DNA from: a phage
Assembly (NCBI GenBank): GCA_018027755.1
Contig: GCA_018027755.1_4098.1
Direction: 5' to 3' (one strand)
Length of the DNA stretch: 64,000 bases
In this document: one piece after another, positions 3,127 through 55,541 of the stretch
Layout: every line of letters starts with the position of its first letter
Numbering within the stretch: position 1 is the stretch's first letter
The notes under the pieces: model-generated
Database searches by the model: none
What the model was told of the DNA's origin: nothing
What the model saw: the letters and a program-made list of their open reading frames with translations, nothing else
Translations under genes and position numbers: made by a program

Positions 3127-3128
3127 TA

Positions 3129-3189: not shown

Positions 3190-3207
3190 AATAACAGGAG
3201 AAACAAA

Positions 3208-3581: not shown

Positions 3582-3589
3582 ATGAAAAA

Positions 3590-3676: not shown

Positions 3677-3795
3677 ATATAAGTATTGAGTACTGAAAAC
3701 TATTTTTAAAAAGTACTTGCAAACTATCTCAATTGGCGTATAATGTTTTACATCGCAAGGGGAAACGGTTTCCCCTGGTAATAAGGAAACAAATC

Positions 3796-4137: not shown

Positions 4138-4151
4138 TATAAAAAAATAGT

Positions 4152-4211
4152 TTGACAATAGATTATAGTACTGTATAATAGTTTACATCAAGGGGAGAAA
4201 AACTTCTCCCC
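4152..4211 (+). promoter_or_regulatory. promoter plus 5' leader hairpin
   Basis: TTGACA-16-TATAAT; GGGGAGAA...TTCTCCCC hairpin. Confidence 0.65.
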
Positions 4212-4233
4212 ACTAACAGAGAGAGAAAACAAA

Positions 4234-4446
4234 ATGGCTAATATCCGGTCGAAATTAAAAAATGCAAAACAAGTTTTATTTTCAGATCATGAATACTTTA
4301 ATAAAGATATTACAGGAGTTACAAGTATCAAGGAAGTAAAAGAAAAAACCGGTGTTTTGTGTGATGTGCGATTAGTTGGGACATTTGGGAATAACGTGCT
4401 ATATCGCTGCGGTGATTACAATTTTACACTGACTATCATTAACTAA
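4234..4446 (+). CDS. hypothetical protein (70 aa)
   Basis: track ORF; purine-rich SD. Confidence 0.65.
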   Translation: MANIRSKLKNAKQVLFSDHEYFNKDITGVTSIKEVKEKTGVLCDVRLVGTFGNNVLYRCGDYNFTLTIIN

Positions 4447-4529
4447 AAATATTATCACAGTACTATTGACATAGTTTGATAGTACTGACATAATAACTTT
4501 TATCAACTACACTACTAAGGAATTAAAAA

Positions 4530-4709
4530 ATGGCTATCATCGCAAAAACTGAAATCGTTGGTCTGGATTCTATCATCATGACGTTTGAAGATCAAAAAGG
4601 TATGTATGTAGTTTCCTATGGTGATTATGTTCGGGAGTATGAAACGGTAGACGAAGCCTTTGAAAGTTATATTCGCCAGGTGAATAAAGCATACGACGAC
4701 TACCGCTAA
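4530..4709 (+). CDS. hypothetical protein (59 aa), MAII-start paralog
   Basis: ATG after TAAGGAA SD; promoter repeat upstream; resembles 1383 gene; below track cutoff. Confidence 0.55.
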   Translation: MAIIAKTEIVGLDSIIMTFEDQKGMYVVSYGDYVREYETVDEAFESYIRQVNKAYDDYR

Positions 4710-4801
4710 AATATATTACCAGTACTATTAAATCTATTGACAACGTTTGATAGTACTGTATAATAAGTTTTATAAACAGTAATTAACTTAACCTAAGAGA
4801 G

Positions 4802-4954
4802 AGAAACAAAATGATCGCACTGGATTCATTCATCGACGCAGTACTGGCAAAAACTGGCGAGGATCTGACCGCAGAACAATACGCGATGATCGAGCAATGT
4901 CAGCAAAACGGTAAATCGGTGAAAGATACTGTTAAGATTATCCGCAAGATGTAA
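4802..4954 (+). CDS. hypothetical protein (50 aa)
   Basis: ATG after AGAGAGAGAAA; promoter upstream; E. coli-like codons. Confidence 0.5.
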   Translation, partial: RNKMIALDSFIDAVLAKTGEDLTAEQYAMIEQCQQNGKSVKDTVKIIRKM

Positions 4955-4960
4955 TATTAT

Positions 4961-4988
4961 AGCCCACTGGTTAACGCTGGTGGGCTTT
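4961..4988 (+). terminator. terminator-like hairpin
   Basis: stem AGCCCAC/GTGGGCT then short T-run. Confidence 0.45.
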
Positions 4989-5059
4989 AATCATTTACCC
5001 TATACAATGCCAGTACTAAACCGTTTATCTCGTTAGAATGCGTTACAGGACGTTTAACA

Positions 5060-5257
5060 ATGATTAGCATGAAATCAGTACAAAAACAAATAGAAACATT
5101 ATCAAAAATTAAACGTAAACAGTACTCCTTAGAATATACAATCAATGGTAACTATCATCTAATGAAAGAAAATAATTTTATAGTCATTGATGAATCATTG
5201 CAAATCATTAGTATAGTACTGAAAGCATTAATCAATGACAGAAAAAAATTAAAATAA
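5060..5257 (+). CDS. hypothetical protein (65 aa), doubtful
   Basis: track ORF; no clear SD; AT-rich. Confidence 0.3.
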   Translation: MISMKSVQKQIETLSKIKRKQYSLEYTINGNYHLMKENNFIVIDESLQIISIVLKALINDRKKLK

Positions 5258-5363
5258 TCTATTGACAATATCATCCAGTACTGGCATAATACTTACATCA
5301 AGACGAGAACGTCACTAACCCATAGGGTGCACAAATGTAACTATATAATATCGTTCAATAAAT

Positions 5364-5423
5364 GATCAAAAAAGTACTGGATCAATTTAACATAAGGAGT
5401 ATAATTCTGATCAATTCTTGATC
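5364..5423 (+). promoter_or_regulatory. cluster of four GATC sites in TGATCAA context
   Basis: GATC at 5364, 5380, 5409, 5420; upstream of TraR-like gene. Confidence 0.4.
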
Positions 5424-5586
5424 AAAGGCAATATACGCAGTTGAATTTATATAGACAATACAAAGGCGTTACTATCCGTGGTAATGCTGGTGGATATGTA
5501 GTATCATATGGTTTGAATAAGATTAGCACTAGTAGTATTATTGTAGCATTACAGTACTATAGTATTTTTATAATGAGGTTAAAATA

Positions 5587-5844
5587 ATGGCAGTAGGATA
5601 CGCGAAAGACGGGGCCGAACAAGACGAGATTCACGCAGTGATTCAGGCCGCCGTTAACCACGCTAGAAAGCAAATTAACGCACAAAGAGAATCACTGGTA
5701 CATTGCCTCGACTGCGGCGATAAAATCCCTGAGAATCGACGCCAGGCCGTTATAGGGTGCATGTATTGTATTACTTGCCAGGAGGATCATGATAGTACTT
5801 TTAAAAGAGATCCGCGTAATTGTTGGCATAGATCTATGAGATAA
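5587..5844 (+). CDS. TraR/DksA-family C4 zinc-finger protein
   Basis: CLDCGDKIPENRR...CMYCITCQ matches TraR/DksA zinc-finger signature. Confidence 0.7.
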   Translation: MAVGYAKDGAEQDEIHAVIQAAVNHARKQINAQRESLVHCLDCGDKIPENRRQAVIGCMYCITCQEDHDSTFKRDPRNCWHRSMR

Positions 5845-5907
5845 AAAGTATTGACAGTACTGAAAGATAGTGTATAATGTTTTATATCTTAACTGAGGAT
5901 AGTAATC

Positions 5908-6264
5908 ATGGGAATACAACATATCACGCGTACTACTGACAATGGAGAGATCACTGGTTATCAGGTACAGGGCAAAGTAGCACAATTGCAGTACTGGTTT
6001 GTTAAACGTGGAATCATTGCACCGGATCTTGATTATGACCGTGTAGCGTTTATTGATTCTCTTTATGTTGATCCTGATAGTCGGGGCAATGGTGAAGGTA
6101 ACGAATTAATGAATGCCTTTATTGATGCCGCCGGTGATTCAGATTGTATCATCTTAGAATGCGATACGGGAGAAGATAACGCCTTTAATCTTAAAGAATG
6201 GTACGAAGGTTTCGGATTCGAGGTATTGATAGATAGTGAATATCCTATCATGATTTTATCATAG
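5908..6264 (+). CDS. small GNAT-like acetyltransferase (tentative)
   Basis: LYVDPDSRGNGEGNELM resembles GNAT motif A; SD GAGGA. Confidence 0.45.
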   Translation: MGIQHITRTTDNGEITGYQVQGKVAQLQYWFVKRGIIAPDLDYDRVAFIDSLYVDPDSRGNGEGNELMNAFIDAAGDSDCIILECDTGEDNAFNLKEWYEGFGFEVLIDSEYPIMILS

Positions 6265-6342
6265 TACTTGCATTTAGTTTTCAGTACTGTTATAGTACTT
6301 ACATCAAGGGGAAACGTCTTCCCCTACTAAGAGGAAATGAAA

Positions 6343-6531
6343 ATGGAAAACTTATCAAGTATTTTAGTACAAGATGATTTTGGCAATCCTGGTAGTGCTA
6401 TCATTGTTCGGGGTAATAAAGCAACGTTTGTTATTGCTGGTGGGCCAGTACAGCGTAGCATTAAAAATAATGCTGTTACCATTAATAATGTACGCTATCG
6501 CTTAGATAAAGAATTGATTCATAAACTTTAA
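6343..6531 (+). CDS. hypothetical protein (62 aa)
   Basis: second ATG chosen for SD spacing (track start 6337). Confidence 0.6.
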   Translation: MENLSSILVQDDFGNPGSAIIVRGNKATFVIAGGPVQRSIKNNAVTINNVRYRLDKELIHKL

Positions 6532-6538
6532 AAAGTAT

Positions 6539-6598
6539 TTGACAATAGATTATAGTGCTGTATAATAAGTTACATGAAGGGGTGAAATGATTCTCCCC
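6539..6598 (+). promoter_or_regulatory. promoter plus 5' leader hairpin
   Basis: TTGACA-16-TATAAT; GGGGTGAAATGATTCTCCCC hairpin. Confidence 0.65.
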
Positions 6599-6615
6599 AC
6601 TAAGAGGAAAGAAAA

Positions 6616-6828
6616 ATGCAAGGTCAACTAATCGTTCGTAAATGGTCTGATACTAACGAAAAACCGTGGGATGTACAATACATCGGACCGGATGGGGTAT
6701 CACGTTATCAGCCTGGCGTAACGCATAGTACTGAGCAATTCGCAAACGCTCACCGCGAACGCCTGTTAGAATCCATGAAACAGGGATTCTGTGAAAAATT
6801 CATTCAAGATCATTGGCTGAAAGATTAA
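6616..6828 (+). CDS. hypothetical protein (70 aa)
   Basis: track ORF; SD AAGAGGAAA. Confidence 0.7.
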   Translation: MQGQLIVRKWSDTNEKPWDVQYIGPDGVSRYQPGVTHSTEQFANAHRERLLESMKQGFCEKFIQDHWLKD

Positions 6829-6845
6829 TATAAGGAGTACAGCTT

Positions 6846-6938
6846 ATGCAAATGAATCCGATGATTATTGTTTTAGCTGTACTTATGATCATTCATGCAA
6901 TAGTAGAAGTATTAACGCAATCAGGAGTAATAAAATGA
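6846..6938 (+). CDS. small hydrophobic peptide (30 aa)
   Basis: ATG after TAAGGAG SD; hydrophobic; first of three coupled small ORFs. Confidence 0.45.
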   Translation: MQMNPMIIVLAVLMIIHAIVEVLTQSGVIK

Positions 6939-7108
6939 TTCAAGTAGAATTATCAGTACTGAAAGATCTGTTTTATCGGTTAGGTACTACTGGCGAGTAT
7001 CCTAAAAGTGATACCGCAAAACTTTTTGTATCACTCGACTTATGGCAACGCGAACAATTAGTAATGTCCTGGCGTAAAGGTAAAGCAGATAGCGAGGTGA
7101 AAGCATGA
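6935..7108 (+). CDS. hypothetical protein (57 aa)
   Basis: ATGA overlap with upstream ORF. Confidence 0.45.
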   Translation: MIQVELSVLKDLFYRLGTTGEYPKSDTAKLFVSLDLWQREQLVMSWRKGKADSEVKA

Positions 7109-7254
7109 AAGAATTCTTATTCGAAGTAGTGTTTCAAGGTGTCGGTAGTAACCAACTGATTCGCTCAAGTGGTTACAATGTTAACCAGGCATGGAATAAC
7201 ATTAAACAAATGTACCCGAACGCTATCACCTATCGCAACCCGAAACAAGTTTAA
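7105..7254 (+). CDS. hypothetical protein (49 aa)
   Basis: ATGA overlap with upstream ORF. Confidence 0.45.
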   Translation: MKEFLFEVVFQGVGSNQLIRSSGYNVNQAWNNIKQMYPNAITYRNPKQV

Positions 7255-7261
7255 AAATAAT

Positions 7262-7346
7262 TGAAAAAGGGATTGACACCGGTCAGTCCCTTTGCTATTA
7301 TATACGCATAGAAACAAATCAGCCCACAGGGTGCATAAATGTATCT
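7262..7346 (+). repeat. repeated intergenic element, copy 2
   Basis: TTGACA-17-TATTAT plus core AGCCCACAGGGTGCATAAATGTATC. Confidence 0.6.
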
Positions 7347-7569
7347 ATTGTTTGCTGGTGGCTAGTACTGAAAACTATTTTTAAAAAAGTACTTGCATTG
7401 TACTTAGAATCAAGTATAATGTTTTACATCAGGACGGGGAACGAAACAAGTAACCCCGTTAAGTAGTCCAGGAGTAAGACATACGAAAAACTCCCCTGAT
7501 AAAATAGTTTGACAATAGAAATTAAACGAGTATAATACTTACATCAACCACTGATAAGGAAACATAAAA

Positions 7570-7845
7570 ATGCGGATTCTACTGACAGCTAACGAAATCG
7601 AACAAGTACTGACTACTAACCTGGAAGACTGGAAACGTGAAGCAGATATCCAGGCGGTTCAATGGCTTAACGATAAGTTAACGCCGGATGACTTAAGCAA
7701 GATTGTAGATCCTCAATTCTACGAAGATATTCACGACACCGCGTTAAGCGTCGAGGATGTACTTGATAAGCACTACATTGATACTGATTTACATGTTTAC
7801 GGTCGTAAAAACTTTATCACTATTCACGACATTTACAATACTTAA
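7570..7845 (+). CDS. hypothetical protein (91 aa)
   Basis: track ORF; SD TAAGGAAA; promoter upstream. Confidence 0.7.
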   Translation: MRILLTANEIEQVLTTNLEDWKREADIQAVQWLNDKLTPDDLSKIVDPQFYEDIHDTALSVEDVLDKHYIDTDLHVYGRKNFITIHDIYNT

Positions 7846-7932
7846 GTATTGACAAAGTATCTTAGTACTGTATAATAGTTTACATCAAGGCGGGGAAATG
7901 GTTCCCCTCCTAACTAAAAGAGAGAAATTAAA

Positions 7933-8115
7933 ATGGCTAAGTGCACTATCTGTAAGAAAGAAATCGTATTAGTTCCAAGTGCCCGTGAACGTGCCGCTCG
8001 GTTCGGTGGCAAAGCGTCAGACTATACAAAAATGTTTACTGCCCATGCAGATTGCCAGGTAGCAAAACGTTCACAAGAAAGCGTAGAATTAATGCGTAAA
8101 CTTTCCAAAAAATAA
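7933..8115 (+). CDS. hypothetical small Cys-containing protein (60 aa)
   Basis: track ORF; promoter and hairpin upstream. Confidence 0.65.
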   Translation: MAKCTICKKEIVLVPSARERAARFGGKASDYTKMFTAHADCQVAKRSQESVELMRKLSKK

Positions 8116-8201
8116 GTATTGACAAAGTATCTTAGTACTGTATAATAGTTTACATCAAGTGAGGGGAAACGGTTCCCCTCCTAACAGAGAGAGAAATAAA
8201 A

Positions 8202-8525
8202 ATGGCTATGATCCTTACCCAGAAAGTGGAATTGAAAATTGTAACCTCCTTTGACATTAAAGTTAATCGCTGGACTGATCGGAACGGCAATACTTACCAC
8301 TCTTGCTACGTGTCTGCATTGATTGGTGATCGTTGGGAAGACCTGGGACACGAAACTTTTACATACGGTTACGGTACGCAAGGCGAATACACGGGCTTGG
8401 AGATCATTAAAGAAACCGTTATAGGTTTCAACCCGAAAGAAAAAGTTATTCACCGCATCGAAAAAGAGATTAACAAAGAAATAACAGTTCGCTACTACGA
8501 TGTAAAACGTAAGAAAGACATGTAA
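8202..8525 (+). CDS. hypothetical protein (107 aa), paralog of 1677 gene
   Basis: track ORF; shares GNTY...YGYG and DVKRKKD with 1677-2021. Confidence 0.7.
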   Translation: MAMILTQKVELKIVTSFDIKVNRWTDRNGNTYHSCYVSALIGDRWEDLGHETFTYGYGTQGEYTGLEIIKETVIGFNPKEKVIHRIEKEINKEITVRYYDVKRKKDM

Positions 8526-8620
8526 TAGAATCCATTTAAAGTACTATTTGACATTACACAGATAGTACTTTATAATAGACTCTAACTTGTAGTACTAACT
8601 CAACTAATAGGATGTATACC

Positions 8621-9016
8621 ATGATTACTAAATTCTACGCTACCCGTGAAGCTGCCCGTATTGTTGCACGCGAGGAAGGAGCAGCATTTAAAGACATGGG
8701 AACGACAGCACCGAAAGGTCAACGCTGGGCCGTACAGTTCAAAGAAATCTCTGATATTGTGAATTCACCTGAGCCAGTACTGACAGCAGCAGAACTAAAA
8801 CGAGCGGATATGCTGGCGGCAATACTTGACGCTCAAGATGAATTTATCGCTGATTCTGATATCAAAGTACAGGTAAACCACACCGCATGGACTCACGCGG
8901 ATCACCTGGCAAACCTTAAGCGTCCAAGTGAACTGATTCGCAACCAGAAAGAGATCCGACACGACCGTAAGGGTAATCGTGTAACAGTATACAGTAAACG
9001 CCGCCAGGTTATCTAA
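8621..9016 (+). CDS. hypothetical protein (131 aa)
   Basis: ATG with AGGA 8 nt upstream; track start 8612 alternative. Confidence 0.65.
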   Translation: MITKFYATREAARIVAREEGAAFKDMGTTAPKGQRWAVQFKEISDIVNSPEPVLTAAELKRADMLAAILDAQDEFIADSDIKVQVNHTAWTHADHLANLKRPSELIRNQKEIRHDRKGNRVTVYSKRRQVI

Positions 9017-9038
9017 TAACTTGCAGTACTAACAACAC

Positions 9039-9063
9039 GGCGGGATCAGTTCCCGCCTTTTTT
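9039..9063 (+). terminator. rho-independent terminator
   Basis: stem GGCGGGA/TCCCGCC then T-run. Confidence 0.8.
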
Positions 9064-9077
9064 ATAGGACAAACAAA

Positions 9078-9332
9078 ATGATTAAGGTTCAACTATATAA
9101 AGATAACATCTTACGGGTACACTATAAAGCACCGAAGAGAATCATCACAAAGGCCGTACAGCTTGCTAATGAGTTTATTAATGGTAACCTATTACCAAGG
9201 AAGTTAAGCAACGGGAAACTGCGTGTAATCGACGTGGACACTAACAACAGGATAGTAATCGAGAACACAGGAAAAATAAACCTTTATGAACACCAACAAT
9301 ATAATAAGAAAATAAAACTAATATCACGTTGA
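9078..9332 (+). CDS. hypothetical basic protein (84 aa)
   Basis: track ORF; weak SD. Confidence 0.5.
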   Translation: MIKVQLYKDNILRVHYKAPKRIITKAVQLANEFINGNLLPRKLSNGKLRVIDVDTNNRIVIENTGKINLYEHQQYNKKIKLISR

Positions 9333-9385
9333 CAGTACTCAAATGTTTTAGTACTATGTACACATACCAACACGGGAGAAACAAA

Positions 9386-9604
9386 ATGAAATTATCTAAA
9401 ATCGAAAAAACAACTATTGATGTAGCAGTTAAGCACGGTTATACCTTTCGTAATGATTCACATTTTACCAATTTTCAACAAGGACAGAGAACTATTAAAA
9501 AACTAATTGACAAAGGCTTATTAGTTAAAGTAGATAACGGTAACGGTGTGGAGTATCAACCAACACAGGACGCATTTTATTTTAAGAAATATAATATTAT
9601 CTAA
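9386..9604 (+). CDS. hypothetical protein (72 aa)
   Basis: ATG after GGGAGAAACAAA; promoter TTGACA-17-TACTAT at 9331; track ORF trimmed. Confidence 0.6.
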   Translation: MKLSKIEKTTIDVAVKHGYTFRNDSHFTNFQQGQRTIKKLIDKGLLVKVDNGNGVEYQPTQDAFYFKKYNII

Positions 9605-9662
9605 TTGACAGTACTCAAATGTTTTAGTACTATATGTACATACCAACACGGGGAAAAACAAA

Positions 9663-9905
9663 ATGATTACTTTAGAAAAACGTATCAAAGAAACTACATC
9701 GCTGGTGGAATTGTTAACAGTACTCAAATGTAAAACAACACCATTCAGCACGCCGGACTTTATTAATATGGTTGATGTTAATGGTCGCTATCGTATCACG
9801 GTCGAACAAGGAGCGGCGAAAGTATTCAGTACTAAAAACACTAAGGAAGTGATCCACGCCGTTAATGTTAAAAAAGTAGTTGCCATTGATAGTAAAGTAC
9901 TGTAA
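9663..9905 (+). CDS. hypothetical protein (80 aa)
   Basis: track ORF; duplicated copy of the 9331 promoter at 9604. Confidence 0.6.
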   Translation: MITLEKRIKETTSLVELLTVLKCKTTPFSTPDFINMVDVNGRYRITVEQGAAKVFSTKNTKEVIHAVNVKKVVAIDSKVL

Positions 9906-9936
9906 GATAGTTTCATTAACTCAAGGAGTAAATGCA

Positions 9937-10521
9937 ATGCGTAATTATACTAAATTCATCCGTACACTGTCAGAAATGGAAACCAACAAAGAGATCCTTT
10001 CAGCTTGTCGGTTAGCTGGCCTGGAGATCATCGGTGCTGGTTCTTCCCGTATAGTATTCGCTTTAAATGATCGGTTAGTGATTAAGGTCGCGAATTGTGA
10101 TGCGGGTGTCGAACAAAATGAAACTGAATGTAAGGTATGGAATTTTTTAGACTATGACCGCCCTCAGTTGAAACAGTACTTTGCAAAGGTGCATATGCAT
10201 TTATGCGATCCTGATAATATGTTTATCGTTATGGATCGGTTGAGTACTGCAAGCAAAGGCAGTGTGAAGCACGTTAACGCGTGCAATGAATTAAAGTACA
10301 ATATTAAACGTAATGCAATCGAACGCCAGCACCGCTTTGCTGATGCACTACAACACGTTGATGATACATTATCAACACTAACGATAAGAGATATCAGAAA
10401 ACAGAATATCGGCCAGGATCGTAATGGCCTTATTAAAGTACTTGATTACGGTTTAACCCGCAATATCTGGAATCAGTACTATAAAAAGCGTGATGTGGCA
10501 GCAAGTAAGGTAACACGATAA
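9937..10521 (+). CDS. Ser/Thr protein-kinase-like protein
   Basis: IGAGSSRIVF Gly-loop, VIKVA lysine, IRDIRKQNIG catalytic loop, LDYG (DFG-like); SD AAGGAG. Confidence 0.55.
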   Translation: MRNYTKFIRTLSEMETNKEILSACRLAGLEIIGAGSSRIVFALNDRLVIKVANCDAGVEQNETECKVWNFLDYDRPQLKQYFAKVHMHLCDPDNMFIVMDRLSTASKGSVKHVNACNELKYNIKRNAIERQHRFADALQHVDDTLSTLTIRDIRKQNIGQDRNGLIKVLDYGLTRNIWNQYYKKRDVAASKVTR

Positions 10522-10529
10522 AAAAGATT

Positions 10530-10620
10530 AAAAAAGGGATTGACTCCGGTCAGTCCCTTTGCTATTATATATCCATTGAGAGATAACTCACTGACCCATA
10601 GGGTGCGGAAGTGTATCTAT
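10530..10620 (+). repeat. repeated intergenic element, copy 3
   Basis: TTGACT-17-TATTAT plus conserved core. Confidence 0.6.
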
Positions 10621-10742
10621 TATATAAGTATTCAGTACTGAAAACTATTTTTAAAAAAGTACTTGCATTGTACTTAGAATCAAGTATAATGTTTTATATC
10701 GAGAGGGGGAAATGGTTCTCCCTGGCAATAAGGAATAAAATC

Positions 10743-10964
10743 ATGACTACAATGACTTGCATTTACGCTTCCAATCGTCTGAATGATGCGGCCTTTAATG
10801 TTGATTCAGAATATCAATGTTATCGGGATGAAAATAAAAAAGTTTTTGTAGTTGATAATAATGGTTTCCATATTGAATTACAATCCGGCTTCACTGGTGT
10901 TGATGGTAAATCAGTATGGGGCGTACAGGATGATAAAGGTACATATCATTTTAAACGTAATTAA
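10743..10964 (+). CDS. hypothetical protein (73 aa)
   Basis: ATG after TAAGGAATAAAATC; track ORF trimmed past hairpin. Confidence 0.65.
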   Translation: MTTMTCIYASNRLNDAAFNVDSEYQCYRDENKKVFVVDNNGFHIELQSGFTGVDGKSVWGVQDDKGTYHFKRN

Positions 10965-11048
10965 GTATTTGACAAAGTATCTTAGTACTGTATAATAGTT
11001 TACATCAAGGGGAGAATAGTTCTCCCCGATACTAAAAGGAATAAAATC

Positions 11049-11456
11049 ATGACTACTACCAATCAAGCTCGGAACATCACCAACGATAAAAATCATGCTG
11101 CAATGGTCGCTGGTTACATTGAAGCTATGCAATTCAGTACTGTACACAATGAGAACGGCGAATACCTGGAAGATTATGAATTATCAGAGCAAGCCCATCA
11201 AGCGGCAGTGATTGCATGTTCACGTTTCCTTGCTGTACATGGTGAAGATATGGAAACAGTACAAAAACACCATAATCCTGATTATACTTATAGTCATGCA
11301 GGTCATGATCTCTTTCTTACTCGCGAAGGTCACGGCACTGGTTTTTGGGATCGTGATATCGGTCACTATGATGATATATTCACTAAGTACTGCGAAGAAA
11401 TCAACGTTTGCGATCCCTATGTAGGCGATGATAATCTAATCTATATGGGCGAATAA
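11049..11456 (+). CDS. hypothetical protein (135 aa)
   Basis: track ORF; SD AAAGGAA; promoter and hairpin upstream. Confidence 0.7.
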   Translation: MTTTNQARNITNDKNHAAMVAGYIEAMQFSTVHNENGEYLEDYELSEQAHQAAVIACSRFLAVHGEDMETVQKHHNPDYTYSHAGHDLFLTREGHGTGFWDRDIGHYDDIFTKYCEEINVCDPYVGDDNLIYMGE

Positions 11457-11544
11457 AAGTATTTGACAAAGTATATCAGTACTGTATAATAGTTTACATC
11501 AAGGGGAGAATAGTTCTCCCCCACCAATAAAAGGAAACAAAATT

Positions 11545-11817
11545 ATGTCCAGCTACTCCGCTACTATGATCATTAAAGATATGAACGGTAATCCTACTTC
11601 TGCTGGTGGATCATTTGGAAACATTAATTTAGATGGGCGGTTATCCATGCAATCAGCCATCGATACAGCGAAAGAAGTTTTTAAGAATGAATGTACTGTA
11701 AGCAAGCTGGATTATATGGGATTCGCTATCGAGAAAACTAATCGTTTTGTGAACTACAAAAATCCACTGATGATTGATACTAACCTGAAAGCTAACGAAG
11801 TGGAATACTTATTATGA
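11545..11817 (+). CDS. hypothetical protein (90 aa)
   Basis: track ORF; SD AAAGGAAA. Confidence 0.7.
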   Translation: MSSYSATMIIKDMNGNPTSAGGSFGNINLDGRLSMQSAIDTAKEVFKNECTVSKLDYMGFAIEKTNRFVNYKNPLMIDTNLKANEVEYLL

Positions 11818-12005
11818 CAGTTGAAGAAGTTAAAAAAGTACTGGCAGTACTACGCTATCATAATCATTGCAAGGTGAAGAATGATCCTGATTATCTCGAT
11901 TCATCCCTGGAAGAGGATACACTACAAGCAATAAGCCATATGCAAAAAATGCTTAAGCGTATGACCGAAAAGAATAGACCGGACTATATCGGAAATAAAA
12001 TTTAA
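11814..12005 (+). CDS. hypothetical protein (63 aa)
   Basis: track ORF; ATGA overlap with upstream gene. Confidence 0.6.
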   Translation: MTVEEVKKVLAVLRYHNHCKVKNDPDYLDSSLEEDTLQAISHMQKMLKRMTEKNRPDYIGNKI

Positions 12006-12091
12006 AAAGTACTTGCATTGTAGTTAGATTAACGTATAATGTTTTATATCGAGAGGGGAAATGGTTTCCCCTCAAGTCCAGGAGATACACC

Positions 12092-12355
12092 ATGAACACT
12101 ATCGAAATCACTATCAATGCACACGTATACGACAACGTAGTACTGCAAACTACTATGACCGCTAATGATACCAGTACTTTGCGGAATACTGTTATTAGTG
12201 CCGTATGTGCTGCAATCGGTGATGTTGCCCTGGAAAATGCAGAACATATCAACAACGGTTTCACTATGTGCAAACGTGATAACGCAAAACATATCATCGT
12301 GGAAGGTTACGGCGGTGTAGAATTTAATGTTTATATGAAAAAAGTATTTGCATAA
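12092..12355 (+). CDS. hypothetical protein (87 aa)
   Basis: track ORF; SD CAGGAGA. Confidence 0.7.
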   Translation: MNTIEITINAHVYDNVVLQTTMTANDTSTLRNTVISAVCAAIGDVALENAEHINNGFTMCKRDNAKHIIVEGYGGVEFNVYMKKVFA

Positions 12356-12422
12356 TAACTAAAACAAAGTATAATGTTTTGCATAGGGGGAGATATCCTC
12401 CCCCACTAAAAGGAGTAATAAA

Positions 12423-12647
12423 ATGGCTAACTTTGATGAACTGATGCGGGAAGTAGCTACCCTGGCAGAAGAGAAGAAATCATTCGATTCTATCTATAAC
12501 ACCTCTTACCGTGATTCAGTACTGGCATGTACTCAGGATCAAAAAGATGAACTAATCGCCACATATCATGAAGCATGGAAGTACTACCGCCAATGGGAGA
12601 AAGAAGAAAGCGAGTCTACCATCAACGGCATCAATAATCTAATCTAA
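12423..12647 (+). CDS. hypothetical protein (74 aa)
   Basis: track ORF; SD AAAGGAG. Confidence 0.7.
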   Translation: MANFDELMREVATLAEEKKSFDSIYNTSYRDSVLACTQDQKDELIATYHEAWKYYRQWEKEESESTINGINNLI

Positions 12648-12723
12648 AAGTTTTATTTCAGTACTATTGACATAGCTTGATAGTACTGATGTAATAACTT
12701 TACTAACTACAAGGGGAAACATA

Positions 12724-12981
12724 ATGGAACAGTTCACACAATATCGGGTAAATCCTCAAGCTATGGCCTACGTAGAAGACCATAAAACGTTACCAGTACT
12801 GCAACCAGTTAAAGGCCATATCTATCGTGCAATGTCGTGGAGTACGGCCCAGGATGGCTATAAAACCGTAGCTGTCGGTATGTACTGCGGTAATGGTGAA
12901 TGGTTTGATCCAAATAATCCGGTCGCCGTTGACAGTACTGAAAAAATGAAATGGGCCGACTACATCGAAGATATTTCATAA
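12724..12981 (+). CDS. hypothetical protein (85 aa)
   Basis: track ORF; repeated promoter type upstream. Confidence 0.65.
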   Translation: MEQFTQYRVNPQAMAYVEDHKTLPVLQPVKGHIYRAMSWSTAQDGYKTVAVGMYCGNGEWFDPNNPVAVDSTEKMKWADYIEDIS

Positions 12982-13071
12982 AAACTATTTGACAGTACTA
13001 ACCAGTAATGTATAATGTTTTACATAGAGCGGGGGAATAGTTCTCCCGCCAATAGTTTGGAGTAAAACATT

Positions 13072-13272
13072 ATGTCTATCGCTATCGCCCTGGTTGAAGT
13101 ACTGAAAGAAGCTAAAGCCAACCTTATCGATGTACAGATTAAGGAATTGCAAAACGGCTTAATCGGCTGCACTTGTACCGCTGGCGGTGCGGCAGACTAT
13201 CGAGAACACGAATCACTCGAATCACTGGTTCGGTATCTTACCATGATCGTTGATGATTGGAGAATCATCTAA
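13072..13272 (+). CDS. hypothetical protein (66 aa)
   Basis: track ORF; SD TGGAGT. Confidence 0.65.
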   Translation: MSIAIALVEVLKEAKANLIDVQIKELQNGLIGCTCTAGGAADYREHESLESLVRYLTMIVDDWRII

Positions 13273-13284
13273 CAAAAAAAGAAT

Positions 13285-13370
13285 AAAAAAAGGGATTGAC
13301 TCCGGTCAGTCCCTTTGCTATTATATACGCATAGACAAAAACTAGCCCACAGGGTGCATAAGTGTATCCA
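13285..13370 (+). repeat. repeated intergenic element, copy 4
   Basis: TTGACT-17-TATTAT plus core AGCCCACAGGGTGCATAAGTGTATC. Confidence 0.6.
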
Positions 13371-13519
13371 AAATATATAGTTAATAACGGTGAGTAACTA
13401 TCTGCTGGTGGAGTGAAAACTATTAATAAAAAAAGTATTGACAAAGTATATCAGTACTGCGATAATGTATCTCGTAGGGCGGCAATGGTGCGACGGCCCA
13501 CAAAGTTAGGAGATTCAAA

Positions 13520-13852
13520 ATGACTACTTCAATCGCTATCGTTAAAGCTTTCATCCGTACTAATGTTTCCTCTGTATTCATCGACGGCCTCGACCGTAAC
13601 GTAGAATACTCAATCATTATCGCACAAACGGCAAACGGTTCTCGGTACATCCTTAATGATAGTGAAGCAAATCACTACTACTTCACTAAAGCCACTGGCT
13701 TTAAACGCATCGATGCTGATGTAGTATACGCTAAGATGAATAAGCTGGTAGATAAGATTAACGCTAAAGGTACTATAGATTTACAGTACTGGACCGAAAC
13801 CGATCCAGAATATGGATCTCACCGCTACCTGAATCCAGGTATTAAAATGTAA
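13520..13852 (+). CDS. hypothetical protein (110 aa)
   Basis: track ORF; SD TAGGAGA. Confidence 0.7.
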   Translation: MTTSIAIVKAFIRTNVSSVFIDGLDRNVEYSIIIAQTANGSRYILNDSEANHYYFTKATGFKRIDADVVYAKMNKLVDKINAKGTIDLQYWTETDPEYGSHRYLNPGIKM

Positions 13853-13941
13853 AAAGTACTTGCATAGTACTTAGAATCAAGTATAATGTTTTACATAGAG
13901 AGGGGGAAATGGTTCTCCCTCCTAAATTAAGGAGTTTTATC

Positions 13942-14343
13942 ATGACCTTCTCAATCAATTCCTTCGCTGACGTTTTAGTACTGGCTCGGACTTTCGGTAA
14001 AGATGCACTGGAGTACGCTGTAAGTAATGGTACTATCCAACCGGAACAGTGCCGCATCATTGGAAACTGCAAACGTTGGGCGGTATCCAATACTATTGCA
14101 CTGGAAAACTTCCACGATGGCAACAATGAATATTCTGTTGATGTAGTATTCGAAGCCGTTGATCTCGGCGGTATCTATAATACTAACCTGAATGATGTGC
14201 GTATCGTTCGCACGGGGTTCGGTGCTTATGATGTATCTATTCGTGAAGCTATGAACACCGGATACATTAGCAAGGACTTACTTGCTCACATCATGCAGCT
14301 GTGTACGGAACGTAACGAAGCACGTACTATCTTAGGGCTGTAA
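13942..14343 (+). CDS. hypothetical protein (133 aa)
   Basis: ATG after TAAGGAG SD; track ORF trimmed. Confidence 0.7.
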   Translation: MTFSINSFADVLVLARTFGKDALEYAVSNGTIQPEQCRIIGNCKRWAVSNTIALENFHDGNNEYSVDVVFEAVDLGGIYNTNLNDVRIVRTGFGAYDVSIREAMNTGYISKDLLAHIMQLCTERNEARTILGL

Positions 14344-14368
14344 GCAATACACATCACCAAACATCATA

Positions 14369-14388
14369 GGCCGCTCTCTAGCGGCCTT
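14369..14388 (+). terminator. terminator-like hairpin
   Basis: stem GGCCGC/GCGGCC; weak U-tract. Confidence 0.4.
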
Positions 14389-14411
14389 AACTATATCAGG
14401 AGGGCATACAT

Positions 14412-14621
14412 ATGTTCTATACAGTATACAGCGTTCTAGGCACTATTGCAGGCGTACATGATAACGTCAATGATGCTATGCGTACAGTACTGCAACAGGT
14501 TCCACTAAAGCCTAAGACCATTAAGCAGATGACAGCACGACTAACCAGGGCGACCGATGGCGTGGAAGTATGGCAGGACTACGGGGATACACAGATAATC
14601 GTAAGCGTAACGAAGGATTAA
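14412..14621 (+). CDS. hypothetical protein (69 aa)
   Basis: track ORF; SD AGGAGG. Confidence 0.7.
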   Translation: MFYTVYSVLGTIAGVHDNVNDAMRTVLQQVPLKPKTIKQMTARLTRATDGVEVWQDYGDTQIIVSVTKD

Positions 14622-14655
14622 TGCGTAAAGGGATCTAGTACTGATTCAGAAAAAA

Positions 14656-14721
14656 GTCAAGGCGTTTTTAAAATTATGCGTTAAAAAAATGCATAGGTAA
14701 TCCCTTGACTTTTTTGAAATA
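14656..14721. repeat. 13-bp inverted repeat with 40-nt loop at module boundary
   Basis: AAAAAAGTCAAGG...CCTTGACTTTTTT; lies at compositional shift. Confidence 0.5.
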
Positions 14722-14871
14722 AAAGGGATTGGACTATGGCAAAATGCGTAGGGGGCTAAAGGGCGGGTAACCTTAGCGACTTCGATAAAGGGGTATTACG
14801 AATAAAATGTTATTGATTTTTTATACGAATCGTATATTATAGGATTGATATTATTTTTTAATGGAGTCCCT

Positions 14872-15069
14872 ATGCGTATTTTAACTAAAGAACAGCACCA
14901 CGAAAGACTTATCAATAACATGGCTATGATAATGTATAAGTCCCATGACCGTGGTATTGCCTATAAGCGTGAATTAATTATGGCACTATTCATTGGAACT
15001 AACTTTCAGGAAAGGTATGTCAACGATTGGATTTGGTATTTAATTGAAGATATAACGAGTAAACTATGA
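14872..15069 (+). CDS. Fam-A paralog 1
   Basis: C-terminal IGTNFQERYV motif; SD GGAG; first gene of array. Confidence 0.65.
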   Translation: MRILTKEQHHERLINNMAMIMYKSHDRGIAYKRELIMALFIGTNFQERYVNDWIWYLIEDITSKL

Positions 15070-38737: not shown

Positions 38738-39065
38738 TGGTACTGAATACTTTGTTTCAAGATATGTAATCAACCACAACCATTATGTAACCTATATTCC
38801 AGAATACAATCAATTTTATATCCAGATTTATCAATATAATGGAAAGATAAATGATATATATTCAGAAATAAAAATCCCTGATTATAGTACTTTATCAGAA
38901 GAGGAATTATTTCAGGAGAGCACTATAAGTACTGAAGATGTGTACGAAATAATGGAATACCAGAAGGTACTTAAACATTTTCATGAAGCAAATGATATAC
39001 AAATCGATATTGTTAAACCGTGGTGTTACAATACATATGAGGTAAATTATGTTAGAAATGATTAA
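38703..39065 (+). CDS. Fam-B paralog
   Basis: motif EEELFQESTIST. Confidence 0.6.
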   Translation: MQNTTTIQYMTDGTEYFVSRYVINHNHYVTYIPEYNQFYIQIYQYNGKINDIYSEIKIPDYSTLSEEELFQESTISTEDVYEIMEYQKVLKHFHEANDIQIDIVKPWCYNTYEVNYVRND

Positions 39066-39462
39066 AATTATGCAACGTTGTGTTGTTGACCAACACGGGA
39101 TATATGGATATCGTTTAAGTGCTCCTATTGACAAAAATAAAACAACCTATGTAAGCTATAATGCTGTACAAGGATTTGATATATTCATTAGTACTAATTA
39201 TCAAATCAAACAAGCTAAAGATGTGTCTATAATGACCCCTGATGAGTTATTTCAGTACAGCTTAGTCTTTCCTACATGTATCGATTTACAACGTCTAGGA
39301 GCGATACAGAAGGTTTTACGCGAACATAAAGTACAACCCAATAAAGTCACACACATTCCAGAAACAATCTTCAAAACCATAGAAGTAGAAACTCCTGATT
39401 ATATGTTAAGTGATGATGAGTACTACGAGAAACACTTCCCTGGTAAAGTTTGGAGAGACTAA
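39049..39462 (+). CDS. Fam-B paralog
   Basis: motif PDELFQYSLVFP. Confidence 0.6.
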   Translation: MLEMIKIMQRCVVDQHGIYGYRLSAPIDKNKTTYVSYNAVQGFDIFISTNYQIKQAKDVSIMTPDELFQYSLVFPTCIDLQRLGAIQKVLREHKVQPNKVTHIPETIFKTIEVETPDYMLSDDEYYEKHFPGKVWRD

Positions 39463-39953
39463 TGAACCGAAAGTACAGAGAAACTATGAAGTTCGCTAGG
39501 GAGTGTTTAGAAGTGTTTGAGTTCATCAATGCTCATAAAGATTTACTCCATAGATACATTGCAATCAGTGAGACAGATGACCATAGGTACATATGTTCTC
39601 GAATTCAAGATAAGATATATAAGATTGTGTTCTCGGAAACATACACAGATACATCTAATTCACTATATGATTTTGCACGTACTGATTACGTTTCATACAA
39701 ATCTTGGTCTGATAGTATTAAAATTGTGCACAAGCAAAATACATTTTATTCTTTTCTTACGGACATTTCCGAAGAAAGTTACTTTCAAAACAGTTTAATT
39801 TATACAGAAAAAGAACTCAAAATGTTATATATTATGTCGTACTTTAAAAAGTACTGCAAATTTAATACATTATCTTTTGAGATTTCTGCAATGAAAGTAT
39901 TCATTAAAAATGTAAAAGAATTAAAGAGGGCTTTTAATGTACATAGAAAATGA
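39462..39953 (+). CDS. Fam-B paralog
   Basis: motif EESYFQNSLIYT; internal ATG (track 39450). Confidence 0.6.
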   Translation: MNRKYRETMKFARECLEVFEFINAHKDLLHRYIAISETDDHRYICSRIQDKIYKIVFSETYTDTSNSLYDFARTDYVSYKSWSDSIKIVHKQNTFYSFLTDISEESYFQNSLIYTEKELKMLYIMSYFKKYCKFNTLSFEISAMKVFIKNVKELKRAFNVHRK

Positions 39954-49560: not shown

Positions 49561-49589
49561 TTTTTTGTATAAATTTATGAGGATTGTAT

Positions 49590-50438
49590 ATGTTAGACAT
49601 TTCAGATTTTCTTAATTTTAAAAAGTATTCAGTACTTGAACATATCAACGAATTTCTGAATTCTACTACACCATTTGGTATCAGTACATCAAATGCATAC
49701 GATGGATATACAATCTTCCCATACAATGACTTTCAAATTTCCGTCAAAAAAGGTTTTACAAAAGAAGTTGCAATTCGTGATGTAGTAATGTATAGCGATT
49801 CTTCTATTTCTTACTGTCATGACGTGAACAAGTTTGAATCTCTTTCAACACCTAATTGTTCATACTACAAATCCCATGACACGATGATGTATAAAGAACA
49901 ACATATCAATGGTGTTTCGTTCTATAAAACTAGCAGTGATAAATCATATACATCTAGAGATGATTTTGGAAAATACACATGTACTATGCACACGGATAAT
50001 GAAAAAACAAATTACACTCATTCATTCGAGTCCAAATTCCAAGAGAGTGAAGTTTCAAATATCACTATACAAGAACAGGTTTCAGAAGGCATTGTATATC
50101 GTAGTACTGCATTCTTTCGCATGAAAGATATTGCCACAGGCAGACCAATGATGTACAATATTGACATATACATGAAAGGTGATATATCCGAAGTAGTGAT
50201 TAGTACTGGTTATCGTGAAAAATATACAGTTACAATGGAATCACCAGATGCATCATTAGTTCACCTCTTTAACAATTTATATACATTCCAATTCGAACTT
50301 AGTTTCGATCCAAATGAATATCAAATATTTGATATATTAAAAAGTAATATTATTAATAAGTTAGAATATTACTACAAGTTAGGTGGTAAGATGTGCATAG
50401 TTAATACTATGTTACATAACATAAAAGAAACATTATAA
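49590..50438 (+). CDS. hypothetical protein (282 aa), possible divergent Fam-B
   Basis: ATG after GAGGA SD (track TTG at 49584); C-terminal YTFQFELSFD. Confidence 0.55.
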   Translation: MLDISDFLNFKKYSVLEHINEFLNSTTPFGISTSNAYDGYTIFPYNDFQISVKKGFTKEVAIRDVVMYSDSSISYCHDVNKFESLSTPNCSYYKSHDTMMYKEQHINGVSFYKTSSDKSYTSRDDFGKYTCTMHTDNEKTNYTHSFESKFQESEVSNITIQEQVSEGIVYRSTAFFRMKDIATGRPMMYNIDIYMKGDISEVVISTGYREKYTVTMESPDASLVHLFNNLYTFQFELSFDPNEYQIFDILKSNIINKLEYYYKLGGKMCIVNTMLHNIKETL

Positions 50439-53070: not shown

Positions 53071-53691
53071 ATGCGTAGCATGATAATTCTACTGATGTTG
53101 ATGCAATCAACGTCACGTATATTCATTGATGTTTCCATAGGAATAATGATGGCATTTATTAGAAAAGAAAAAACTGTTACTTATAAAACTTTGAATTTTG
53201 ATGATTGCATTAATCAATCACAAGACGAAGATATCTTTACTGGATATGTGGTTATTAAAGAAAAAGGATGCATTTCTTATATAAAGGAATTACAAAATGG
53301 AATTGAAGTGACTTCAGTTAAATTACTTCCTACTCAAAAACCAACAATATCAAAAGCCCAGTATGGTAATTATTTTGAAGAAAGATATAGTAATAATTCA
53401 ATAAGTGTTAAGGCTCATATTATTAAAGGAGAACTAGAAGGAGAATATAGAAAATACAACCCACAAGGAAAATGTGTTTGGGTTAAATACTTCAATTCAG
53501 GATATGATGTAACATCTGAAATTATAGAATTCTTGGGTTTAAAATGTACCCCTGAGACTATTCATGATTACAAGTTCAATACTGAAGAAGAGTTTAATCT
53601 GATGATGCGTTACGGTTCACATTTTAAATTTTTATATGAATATAACATTGACAGTAGTACTTTTGATAAGATAGTACACAACTGTCTCTAA
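53071..53691 (+). CDS. MORN/YwqK-like repeat protein (tentative)
   Basis: G-x-Y/W repeat units such as GEYRKYNPQGKCVWVKYFNSG; start uncertain. Confidence 0.4.
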   Translation: MRSMIILLMLMQSTSRIFIDVSIGIMMAFIRKEKTVTYKTLNFDDCINQSQDEDIFTGYVVIKEKGCISYIKELQNGIEVTSVKLLPTQKPTISKAQYGNYFEERYSNNSISVKAHIIKGELEGEYRKYNPQGKCVWVKYFNSGYDVTSEIIEFLGLKCTPETIHDYKFNTEEEFNLMMRYGSHFKFLYEYNIDSSTFDKIVHNCL

Positions 53692-53707
53692 CAAAAGGAA
53701 TTATATA

Positions 53708-54229
53708 ATGTCGAAGAAGGATGCTTCGAAAAAACATTCAGTACATTTCAGTACTGGAAAGGACAACTGGACAACTCCCAAAGATTTCTTTGAAGATTTG
53801 GATGAGTTATGGGGATTTACACTTGATGCTGCTTGTGTTGATGAGACTGCATTATGTGAGAATTATTTTACACCAAATGATGATTCTCTTTCACAGGATT
53901 GGGGAAAGAATATAGTTTGGTTGAACCCTCCATATAGTGATTTGAAAACATGGTTATCTAAAGCAGTAGATGCGTATAATAAAGGGGCAACTGTATTAAT
54001 TCTTGTACCATCAAGAACGGATACTATAGCCTTTCAGGATTATGCTGCGAAAGTTTGTGATTGTATTTGTTTTATTAAGGGAAGGTTACGATTTGGTATC
54101 CCAGAAGAACCAGAGAAGAAAACAGATTCAGCACCATTTCCTTCGTGTCTGATAGTACTGGATAAGTACTTAACCACTGCTAAAATCAATTATCTTAAAT
54201 CTCTTGGATTGGTGATGAAGAATTTATGA
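53708..54229 (+). CDS. dam: phage Dam-like DNA N6-adenine methyltransferase
   Basis: NWTTPKDFFEDLDELWGFTLDAACVD and LNPPYS motif; SD AAAGGAA. Confidence 0.85.
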   Translation: MSKKDASKKHSVHFSTGKDNWTTPKDFFEDLDELWGFTLDAACVDETALCENYFTPNDDSLSQDWGKNIVWLNPPYSDLKTWLSKAVDAYNKGATVLILVPSRTDTIAFQDYAAKVCDCICFIKGRLRFGIPEEPEKKTDSAPFPSCLIVLDKYLTTAKINYLKSLGLVMKNL

Positions 54230-55011
54230 CAAAATACATTGATATCAACACAGTTTCTATGATAGGAAAACCACCAAATGCTCTACACCCACGTGTTTAT
54301 GCTAGTAGAATAAATGATAAACTAAAAGCACCTAAGCTATCAAATATTAAATTTAATGGCTTTGTTGGTGAATGGAATGGACACGGAACTTATTGTGAAA
54401 TGGAATGTTCTGAACATGGGACATGGAAATGTACAATTGGTAATTTTACACATCAAACAGTCGGTTGTCCTGTATGTGTTGGCTGCAAAAAACATACCAA
54501 AGAATCAATAAGTGAAAATGTAAAATCAATTATCGCAAATGATTCAGAAAGAAATATGTATACATTTCATGGCATACATAAATTTTCTGGTAAAGATTCA
54601 ATACTATCATTGGAATGCCCAACACATGGTATATGGAACACTACCAGTTATAATAATTTCAAAGTTCATGGCTATGGTTGTCCAGAATGCTCAACCTATA
54701 ATTTAAAGCATGATGTTAAATCTGATGATGAGCTTTATTTTTATATCCTGAAAGCTGAAGACCATTTCAAATTAGGTGTTTCTAAAGATATCACTCGCAG
54801 AAAATATGATATTGAAAATACTTCCAAACAAAAGTATGAGTTATATCTTCATGAATATATTGGATATACTAATGAAATTGAAAAGTATATAAAAAGTATG
54901 GGTTATCATACATTCTTTACAAAAGAAGAATATGGTAGTGGATACACCGAAACTGTTGGGATTGATAAGCTGGATGAAGTTGTGAGAATTGTAAGAGAGT
55001 ACCTTAAATGA
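54226..55011 (+). CDS. Cys-repeat protein with GIY-YIG-like (T5orf172-type) C-terminal domain; possible endonuclease
   Basis: repeated CxxC zinc-ribbon-like units; C-terminal YFYILK...KLGVSKDITRR...GSGYTET. Confidence 0.4.
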   Translation: MTKYIDINTVSMIGKPPNALHPRVYASRINDKLKAPKLSNIKFNGFVGEWNGHGTYCEMECSEHGTWKCTIGNFTHQTVGCPVCVGCKKHTKESISENVKSIIANDSERNMYTFHGIHKFSGKDSILSLECPTHGIWNTTSYNNFKVHGYGCPECSTYNLKHDVKSDDELYFYILKAEDHFKLGVSKDITRRKYDIENTSKQKYELYLHEYIGYTNEIEKYIKSMGYHTFFTKEEYGSGYTETVGIDKLDEVVRIVREYLK

Positions 55012-55541
55012 AAGAAACATGTATACTATCATTCATGAGATGTAACCCAATACATAATGGACATGGGTTTGTATTCAACAGTGCATTGGAATTGAAAGAA
55101 CAGTACAATGCTGATTTAAAAATATATCTAAGCACCAGTACTGACAATATAAAAAACCCACTCCCACCTGAACTAAAAATGTATTATACAGAGGGATTCT
55201 ATCCTTCAGTGCAAGAGAACATCTACACAGAAGACAATCTATTTGATATAATGAGAGAACTGGATGGAAAGTACTTAGATGTTCTTTTCATTTGTGGTTC
55301 TGACCGTATTGATTCTTTTCAAAAAACTCTTGACATGTACAATGGTAAGTTGTATAATTTTTGTAGTATAAAAGCAATTCAGGCAGGTATTGACCGTAAT
55401 GTAAGTCAATATAGCTCAACACAAATGCGTAACTTCGCAAAAAATGAAGATTTTGATAGTTTTCGTGAGTTTTTACCTGGAAATGACGAGGACTTAAAAA
55501 TACAATTATTTGAAGACGTTATAAAATACATGAGGAAATAA
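55008..55541 (+). CDS. NMN-adenylyltransferase-like nucleotidyltransferase
   Basis: N-terminal FMRCNPIHNGH matches the nucleotidyltransferase H-x-G-H motif; C-terminal SSTQMR; ATGA overlap. Confidence 0.55.
   Translation: MKETCILSFMRCNPIHNGHGFVFNSALELKEQYNADLKIYLSTSTDNIKNPLPPELKMYYTEGFYPSVQENIYTEDNLFDIMRELDGKYLDVLFICGSDRIDSFQKTLDMYNGKLYNFCSIKAIQAGIDRNVSQYSSTQMRNFAKNEDFDSFREFLPGNDEDLKIQLFEDVIKYMRK

Follow-up and report, generated by a model that had tools for sequence, protein, structure and literature searches.

A predicted, apparently solitary Dam-family adenine methyltransferase gene in a jumbo coliphage and the question of its GATC specificity

The methyltransferase gene and its surroundings

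In the stretch of phage DNA analysed here, 64 kb in length and referred to as the window, an open reading frame with an ATG start and limits of exactly 53708 and 54229 on the plus strand encodes a protein of 173 aa. The initial annotation had placed here an open reading frame bearing the LNPPYS motif, and this frame is real, with the sequence W-L-N-P-P-Y-S at residues 71-77. The gene and the features immediately around it are as follows.

53648..53675, plus strand: sigma-70-like promoter candidate, TTGACA-16 nt-GATAGT, with a consensus match of 10/12, lying within the 3′ end of the upstream ORF
53695..53699, plus strand: Shine-Dalgarno-like AAGGA, 8 nt 5′ of the ATG, read directly in the sequence
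53708..54229, plus strand: predicted N6-adenine methyltransferase gene, 173 aa, apparently solitary, of the PF05869 family and its jumbo-phage or 'SAPFPS' subfamily
54226..55011, plus strand: 261-aa ORF, an inserted endonuclease gene with two CapR-homology (PF21817) zinc-ribbon domains, PHROG 681 'endonuclease'
55008-55541, plus strand: cytidyltransferase-like gene, 177 aa, the conserved downstream neighbour, PHROG 3041/395 'cytidyltransferase'

The window belongs to a 121Q/PBECO4-type jumbo coliphage (Asteriusvirus), not to a T1-like phage, and its Asteriusvirus relatives are jumbo myoviruses of ~350 kb. A 4-kb query shows 98.7% identity to the Escherichia phages ECO103 4-12-1 and EC22.5-2, and 94-98% identity to 121Q, PBECO4, G17, phAPEC6, and Sharanji. 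More than 30 GenBank records contain near-identical genes with the annotation of a Dam-like methyltransferase, and the annotated orthologs include 121Q gp417, Sharanji gp542 (WNN14823.1), slurp01 Dam, RaK2 'dam' (YP_007007602.1), and CBB_72 (AMM43637.1). The identity of the methyltransferase is 95-99% within Asteriusvirus, 63% to RaK2, and 41% to CBB; more broadly, orthologs at 62-67% are found in RaK2, K64-1, Munch, and 7t3, and those at 41-49% in CBB, XaC1, and Yersinia and Erwinia jumbo phages. In CMSTMSU and SD-15_S21, the gene appears to be split. The comparison with the Sharanji ortholog gives a dN/dS of 0.08, which reflects strong purifying selection and thus indicates that selection maintains the gene.

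No restriction-endonuclease family was detected among the neighbours of the methyltransferase gene, and the same holds for the RaK2, CBB, and XaC1 loci, so that the methyltransferase looks solitary. Moreover, among the ORF fragments of at least 40 aa in all six frames of the 64 kb window, this protein is the sole carrier of [DNS]PP[YFWH], and it is also the only match in the window to an HMM built from its homologs. The upstream ORF belongs to PHROG 16210 (unknown function). A scan for promoters of the type found in its 3′ end gave 24 sites compared to 17.3 in shuffles, which makes the candidate at 53648..53675 weak evidence.

On the downstream side, the window locus differs from that of most relatives by an endonuclease-gene insertion of exactly 782 bp after the methyltransferase gene, that is, between it and the cytidyltransferase-like gene, with the ATGA stop/start overlap recreated at both junctions. 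The inserted 261-aa ORF has matches of 100% identity only in ECO103 4-12-1 and EC22.5-2, all other matches being below 32%. It is absent at this locus in Sharanji and 121Q, and apparently also in most other relatives, for which the coverage of the 4-kb query is 79-81%. Overall, it looks like a free-standing homing-endonuclease gene. The cytidyltransferase-like protein carries H-x-G-H (NPIHNGH) and SST-x-x-R motifs, which we take to be typical of nucleotidyltransferases of the NMN/NaMN adenylyltransferase type, and its Pfam match is marginal (E=0.099). Its gene shows a 4-nt overlap with the preceding gene in the window, Sharanji, and RaK2. All orthologs of the methyltransferase gene are located in one block of small same-strand genes, usually directly 5′ of a cytidyltransferase- or nucleotidyltransferase-like gene. 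A functional coupling with the latter gene was considered and rejected because four genes lie between the two in XaC1, and the adjacency can therefore be regarded as synteny within the lineage.

The genome papers on phAPEC6, Sharanji, UE-S1, and CBB each describe the gene product as an adenine methyltransferase and put forward "protective methylation" (PMC7247149, PMC11895373, PMC12805682, PMC5259590). Both the gene, annotated in dozens of genomes, and the anti-restriction idea, already in print, are thus known, and in the searchable literature no methylome or enzymology was found for any member of the subfamily. The Sharanji paper additionally names gp548 a second "methyltransferase". The ortholog of gp548 in the window (49584-50438, plus strand) was examined as such and rejected since it has no support from Pfam or PHROG for this function (PHROG 27741, unknown function), and the published annotation looks unsupported.

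Predicted fold and family assignment

The protein matches the Pfam family PF05869 'Dam' with E=7.5e-32 and 110.8 bits against a cutoff of 28.1, residues 16-156 aligning with positions 7-149 of the 169 in the profile, and it matches PHROG 111 'DNA methyltransferase' with E=1.6e-56. It also has the motif arrangement that marks PF05869, in which (N/D)PPY follows a hydrophobic, motif I-like strand whose last residue is D. The Pfam score (PF05869) and the NPPY motif, which is intact, support the earlier prediction of an N6-adenine methyltransferase of the phage Dam family. Four elements can be located within the gene.

53816..53836, plus strand: motif I-like F37-T-L-D40-A-A-C43 (strand 1 and AdoMet-binding loop), with F37 and D40 invariant in an alignment of 42 sequences
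53924..53935, plus strand: catalytic motif IV, N73-P74-P75-Y76, invariant in the 42-sequence alignment and in a 7-sequence alignment
54008..54025, plus strand: subfamily signature P101-S-R-T-D-T106, with P101, R103, T104, and T106 invariant in the 42 sequences
54077..54145, plus strand: beta-hairpin K124-G-R-L-R-F129...S141-A-P-F-P-S146 with the clade-specific loop insertion I131-D140, a candidate DNA-reading element

The predicted structure is a minimal, single-domain class I Rossmann-type AdoMet methyltransferase fold, and a separate recognition domain is absent from the 173-aa protein. Searches of PDB sequences with the single sequence or a profile gave no usable match. In the 42-sequence alignment, the invariant positions comprise N73, P75, Y76, D40, W21, P24, R103, T104, T106, G125, R126, F129, and A142-S146; L39 and D40 are invariant as well in the 7-sequence alignment, which includes the T1, HP1, and VT-2 enzymes. 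(D/N)PPY has an established role in amino-methyltransferases. In other adenine methyltransferases, mutation of the D of DPPY abolishes the activity (Drozdz 2012). The PSRTDT segment, at the position of which the T1, HP1, and VT-2 enzymes have P/N-x-D-x-S-T, could make a substrate contact. The strands of the hairpin are modelled at residues 128-131 and 134-141, and SAPFPS takes the position of NNKGS/NNKPQ in T1/VT-2/HP1; the hairpin may serve to read DNA.

The enzymes used as references were T1 Dam (39024-39734), HP1 Dam (9166-9684), and the VT-2/933W-type Stx-phage Dam (1468-1992). T1 Dam, HP1 Dam, and VT-2 Dam are each reportedly specific for GATC (Auer & Schweiger 1984; Piekarowicz & Bujnicki 1999; Radlinska & Bujnicki 2001) and, to our knowledge, are the three members of the family with experimentally shown GATC methylation. 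The papers on Nanomotif, PBCV-1, and Campylobacter coli contain no relevant specificity data on PF05869. The alignment splits into two subfamilies, one of which comprises the window protein, CBB_72, and Staphylococcus and marine homologs, and the other T1, HP1, and VT-2. The former shares SVHFSS, P(S/A)RTDT, KGRLKF, and SAPFPS, and the latter differs at all four. The window protein is 26-33% identical to T1/HP1/VT-2 overall, with 34-44% in the N-terminal half and 16-18% in the C-terminal half, whereas the three enzymes among themselves show 33-38% overall and 29-33% in the C-terminal half. Between the window protein and its own subfamily, the C-terminal half is 39-43% identical. In addition, the C-terminal signatures of the validated enzymes, D-x-ST-WF, GR-x-F-I, and a NNKGS-like segment, are not present in the window protein.

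The same division is seen with the NCBIfam model TIGR01712 'phage N-6-adenine-methyltransferase', for which the equivalog cutoff is 97.05 bits. The window protein (92.5 bits), CBB_72 (77), and the other two homologs of this subfamily, P0050 (95.9) and P0067 (83.1), all score below this cutoff, whereas T1 (238.1), the VT-2 type (264.2), and HP1 (114.5) all score above it. In a protein that has no separate target-recognition domain, the sequence must be read by loops of the C-terminal half, and with only 16-18% identity in this half, GATC specificity is not transferable by homology. Together with the score below the TIGR01712 cutoff, this means that homology secures neither the specificity nor the substrate. 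The label "T1-type" given in the initial annotation is therefore valid at the level of Pfam (PF05869) and fails at the equivalog level, where 92.5 bits is short of 97.05 and the C-terminal half diverges. As judged from profile scores and alignments, the window subfamily is a sister to the GATC enzymes of T1, HP1, and VT-2 inside PF05869, not a member of their group.

GATC content, palindrome, and other sequence anomalies

Of all 4-mers in the window, GATC falls furthest below expectation (119 observed vs 243 Markov-expected, z = -8), with an O/E of 0.26-0.39 outside the first 15 kb and 0.83 inside. It is also depleted in carriers of the ortholog, namely RaK2 (77 vs 124 in shuffles), XaC1 (86 vs 120), and CBB (O/E 0.66), and the O/E across RaK2, CBB, and XaC1 is 0.62-0.72. 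For T1, a phage whose Dam methylates GATC, the O/E is 0.78. Counter-selection of this kind is expected if GATC is unreliably protected or if its methylation is a liability, which weakens the case for GATC as the target; the depletion itself neither proves nor excludes GATC recognition.

Two other short sequences are also rare. GCGC has 0 copies in the 64-kb window vs 33.1 +/- 5.4 in dinucleotide-preserving shuffles, and 0 copies as well in the 11-40 kb parts examined of Sharanji, CBB, RaK2, and XaC1, ~196 kb in all. The GCGC-free phages infect E. coli, Pectobacterium, Klebsiella, and Xanthomonas, so that the absence is host-independent and probably intrinsic to the phage, and it could be explained by avoidance of a GCGC-cutting nuclease, possibly a phage-encoded one. 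The depletion of GATC and the absence of GCGC, taken together as site avoidance, suggest that methylation is not the main anti-restriction defence at such sites. The most depleted 6-mer is TAAATA with its reverse complement (17 observed vs 82 expected, O/E 0.21; 13 vs 37 in CBB), which would presumably fit avoidance of TATAAATA, the core of a T4-type late promoter, at non-promoter positions by phages whose lineage has its own sigma factor.

The first 15 kb (window 1-15000) has a GC content of 38% compared to ~32% elsewhere and many very small ORFs. In relatives, its counterpart lies in or next to a direct terminal repeat of ~21 kb, which is annotated as such in vB_Ec-M-J. Parts of it have matches of 80-95% identity in more than 100 records of unrelated coliphages, a sign of mosaic, horizontally exchanged content. 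tRNA genes were ruled out as the cause of the higher GC and GATC content in this region, as ARAGORN detected none in the whole 64-kb window. At 5364-5423, in an intergenic stretch of 330 bp, four (T/G)GATCAA sites are found within 60 bp, near a GAGTATAAT (-10-like) box and a copy of AAGTACTG. Such a cluster has a probability of P=0.02 with respect to the GATC density of the whole window and of P=0.11 when the first 15 kb serve as the local reference, and it could be an operator-like repeat. The methyltransferase had been proposed to connect to this cluster at 5.4 kb; given the value against local density and the status of GATC as the most depleted 4-mer, no tie between them is demonstrable.

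The most over-represented 4-mer in the window is GTAC (550 vs 350, z +10.7). It is contained in AGTACT, with 225 copies vs 21 expected, and in CAGTACTG, with 48 copies vs 0.52 +/- 0.69 in shuffles, and the AGTACT/CAGTACTG palindrome is ~10- to 90-fold over-represented across the phage lineage. Coding DNA carries it in each of the three frames, intergenic DNA carries it as well, and the flanks of the 8-mer show no further signal; one copy, at 53749-53756, is located inside the methyltransferase gene, and CAGTACTG is absent between 14485 and 29908. The excess is kept in Sharanji (39 per 11 kb), CBB (150 per 40 kb), RaK2 (105), and XaC1 (159), and no excess was found in T1, phiP27, or the Staphylococcus prophage. 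No promoter or terminator signal at a fixed distance was found around the AGTACT sites, and no description of the palindrome was found in the searched literature.

Proposed role, alternatives, and known systems

We consider it probable that the protein works as a solitary, AdoMet-dependent N6-adenine methyltransferase, modifies the DNA of the phage itself at a specific short sequence, and thereby protects the progeny. In the mechanism proposed, AdoMet would be bound by the F-T-L-D-A-A-C segment together with the N-terminal helix, and a flipped adenine would be held by the NPPY loop, which follows strand 4 and would catalyse the methyl transfer. The loops of the C-terminal half, namely the PSRTDT loop and the KGRLRF...SAPFPS hairpin with its clade-specific insertion, would read the DNA sequence. 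Replicating phage DNA would be methylated at the short motif, and progeny methylated in one cell could resist, in the next host, those restriction enzymes whose cleavage m6A at this motif prevents; an incoming genome is protected only if the previous host cycle methylated the phage DNA fully. In all RaK2-like jumbo phages, the gene is conserved and vertically inherited, as part of what is probably an early-gene block. The ortholog in fEgEco12 lies ~61 kb from the left end of the genome, among small genes on one strand; this location and the sigma-70-like match in the window suggest, as weak evidence, early transcription. As for the recognition sequence, GATC could be proposed by family precedent and is a real possibility, if not the expected outcome, and an anti-restriction function would be a reasonable guess based on the family.

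The alternatives differ mainly in the target. A T1-type Dam that methylates GATC against GATC-cutting, methylation-sensitive restriction enzymes and is tied to the 5.4 kb cluster appears unlikely to us. This explanation draws on the presence of T1, HP1, and VT-2 Dam in the same Pfam family, all known as GATC enzymes although only 33-38% identical to each other, and on an N-terminal half in which the window protein is as similar to them as they are among themselves. However, the window protein misses the equivalog cutoff, which all three exceed, diverges in the C-terminal half and its signature motifs, and occurs in a genome in which GATC is strongly depleted, as it is in RaK2, CBB, and XaC1. 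Moreover, the host is already Dam+, and the cluster, unexceptional at local density, lies within the mosaic terminal-repeat region. An m6A enzyme with a non-GATC motif, possibly modifying the adenine of (C)AGTACT(G), is also conceivable; the methylation could then be a 'self' mark or serve HIP1-like repeat maintenance, with the genome otherwise escaping restriction by site elimination. The palindrome is reminiscent of HIP1, the highly iterated palindrome of cyanobacteria, for which an association with orphan methyltransferases is described; where a genome has such an iterated palindrome, it also encodes a methyltransferase of matching specificity (Elhai 2015). This analogy is a lead, not evidence. 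The excess of GTAC, AGTACT, and CAGTACTG follows the jumbo-phage carriers of the gene and is missing from T1, phiP27, and the Staphylococcus prophage, but such evidence is purely correlative, and as the excess is lineage-wide, the motif and the methyltransferase gene are inseparable. Furthermore, a C5-cytosine methyltransferase also encoded by these phages fits the HIP model at least equally well, the Staphylococcus prophage shows no AGTACT excess despite its 49%-identical enzyme, and the palindrome could equally be a protein-binding site. We regard this reading, with its self-mark or HIP1-like repeat maintenance, as very improbable.

A different substrate was suggested by Iyer, Anantharaman, Krishnan, Burroughs and Aravind (2021), who proposed that the clade of AMM43637.1 (CBB_72) may methylate RNA. 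By analogy with PCIF1/CAPAM, the protein would then be an RNA adenine methyltransferase that modifies phage or host transcripts for post-transcriptional control, which we regard as improbable. The published proposal rests on a likeness to PCIF1, and the alignment of the phage protein with PCIF1 (PDB 6irx) covers the core only (148/482 residues). However, the VT-2-type Dam, a DNA-methylating relative, gives the same top match to PCIF1, so that the likeness is family-wide, with the reservation that this control is imperfect owing to a weaker model and a smaller margin. The genetic contexts also favour DNA, as the VT-2-type gene sits between ninB and ninE, and the 49%-identical homolog of the Staphylococcus prophage sits between RusA and dUTPase in a replication/recombination module. 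PCIF1/CAPAM itself, a cap-specific mRNA N6-adenosine methyltransferase of 482+ residues, has helical cap-binding and WW domains and acts on capped RNA, whereas the phage protein is a bare core whose 173 aa leave no room for extra domains. A sequence-non-specific adenine methyltransferase of the Hia5, Hin1523, or phiP27/OS31 type, which would blanket the genome with m6A, is hardly credible. A small protein without a recognition domain would suit such an activity, and phage enzymes with this property exist. However, EcoRI and HindIII, both of which are blocked by m6A in their sites, cut the virion DNA of fEgEco12 normally, and the ortholog of this phage is 90.8% identical to the window protein. 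The ClaI and NruI digests of fEgEco12 were considered as a test of GATC methylation and rejected, because in the window only 3/16 ClaI sites and 0/3 NruI sites overlap GATC, too few to show on a gel, and these digests are thus uninformative on GATC methylation. The known non-specific enzymes, moreover, belong to other families. Hia5, Hin1523, and Nma1821 were rejected as members of the same family since they are DPPY/FxGxG enzymes related to EcoDam and T4Dam (Drozdz et al. 2012), and the phiP27 L24/OS31 p25 type was rejected as a relative since it belongs to PF01555 and shows no similarity to the window protein.

The favoured explanation, a solitary enzyme that would methylate the phage's own DNA at a short motif, adds little by itself. 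What matters is the caveat on the transfer of GATC specificity. In annotation pipelines and in papers, any PF05869 protein is handled as a "Dam", which implies GATC. The window clade is not among the enzymes with experimental backing, and it occurs in a genome that avoids GATC more strongly than any other tetranucleotide. The specificity of the window subfamily and the lineage-wide sequence anomalies are therefore worth an experiment.

Compared to the annotated orthologs of other jumbo phages, the window gene is alike in length, motifs, and synteny with the cytidyl/nucleotidyltransferase gene, and nothing of substance is different. With the Dam enzymes of T1, HP1, and VT-2, the window protein shares PF05869 membership, a motif I-like segment followed by NPPY, the lack of a recognition domain, and its state as an orphan, phage-borne enzyme; the small size is common to the window protein, HP1 (173 aa), and the VT-2 type (175 aa). 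It differs from them in having PSRTDT, KGRLRF, and SAPFPS in place of D-x-ST-WF, GR-x-F-I, and NNKGS, respectively. Hia5/Hin1523/Nma1821 and phiP27 L24/OS31 p25 are likewise orphan m6A enzymes of phages or prophages and have been proposed or shown to block many restriction enzymes. The classical alpha-class Dam, represented by E. coli Dam, T4 Dam, and DpnM (PF02086), is a different family with DPPY, FxGxG, and an inserted recognition domain; a Pfam search of the window protein gave no match to PF02086, which places it outside the alpha class.
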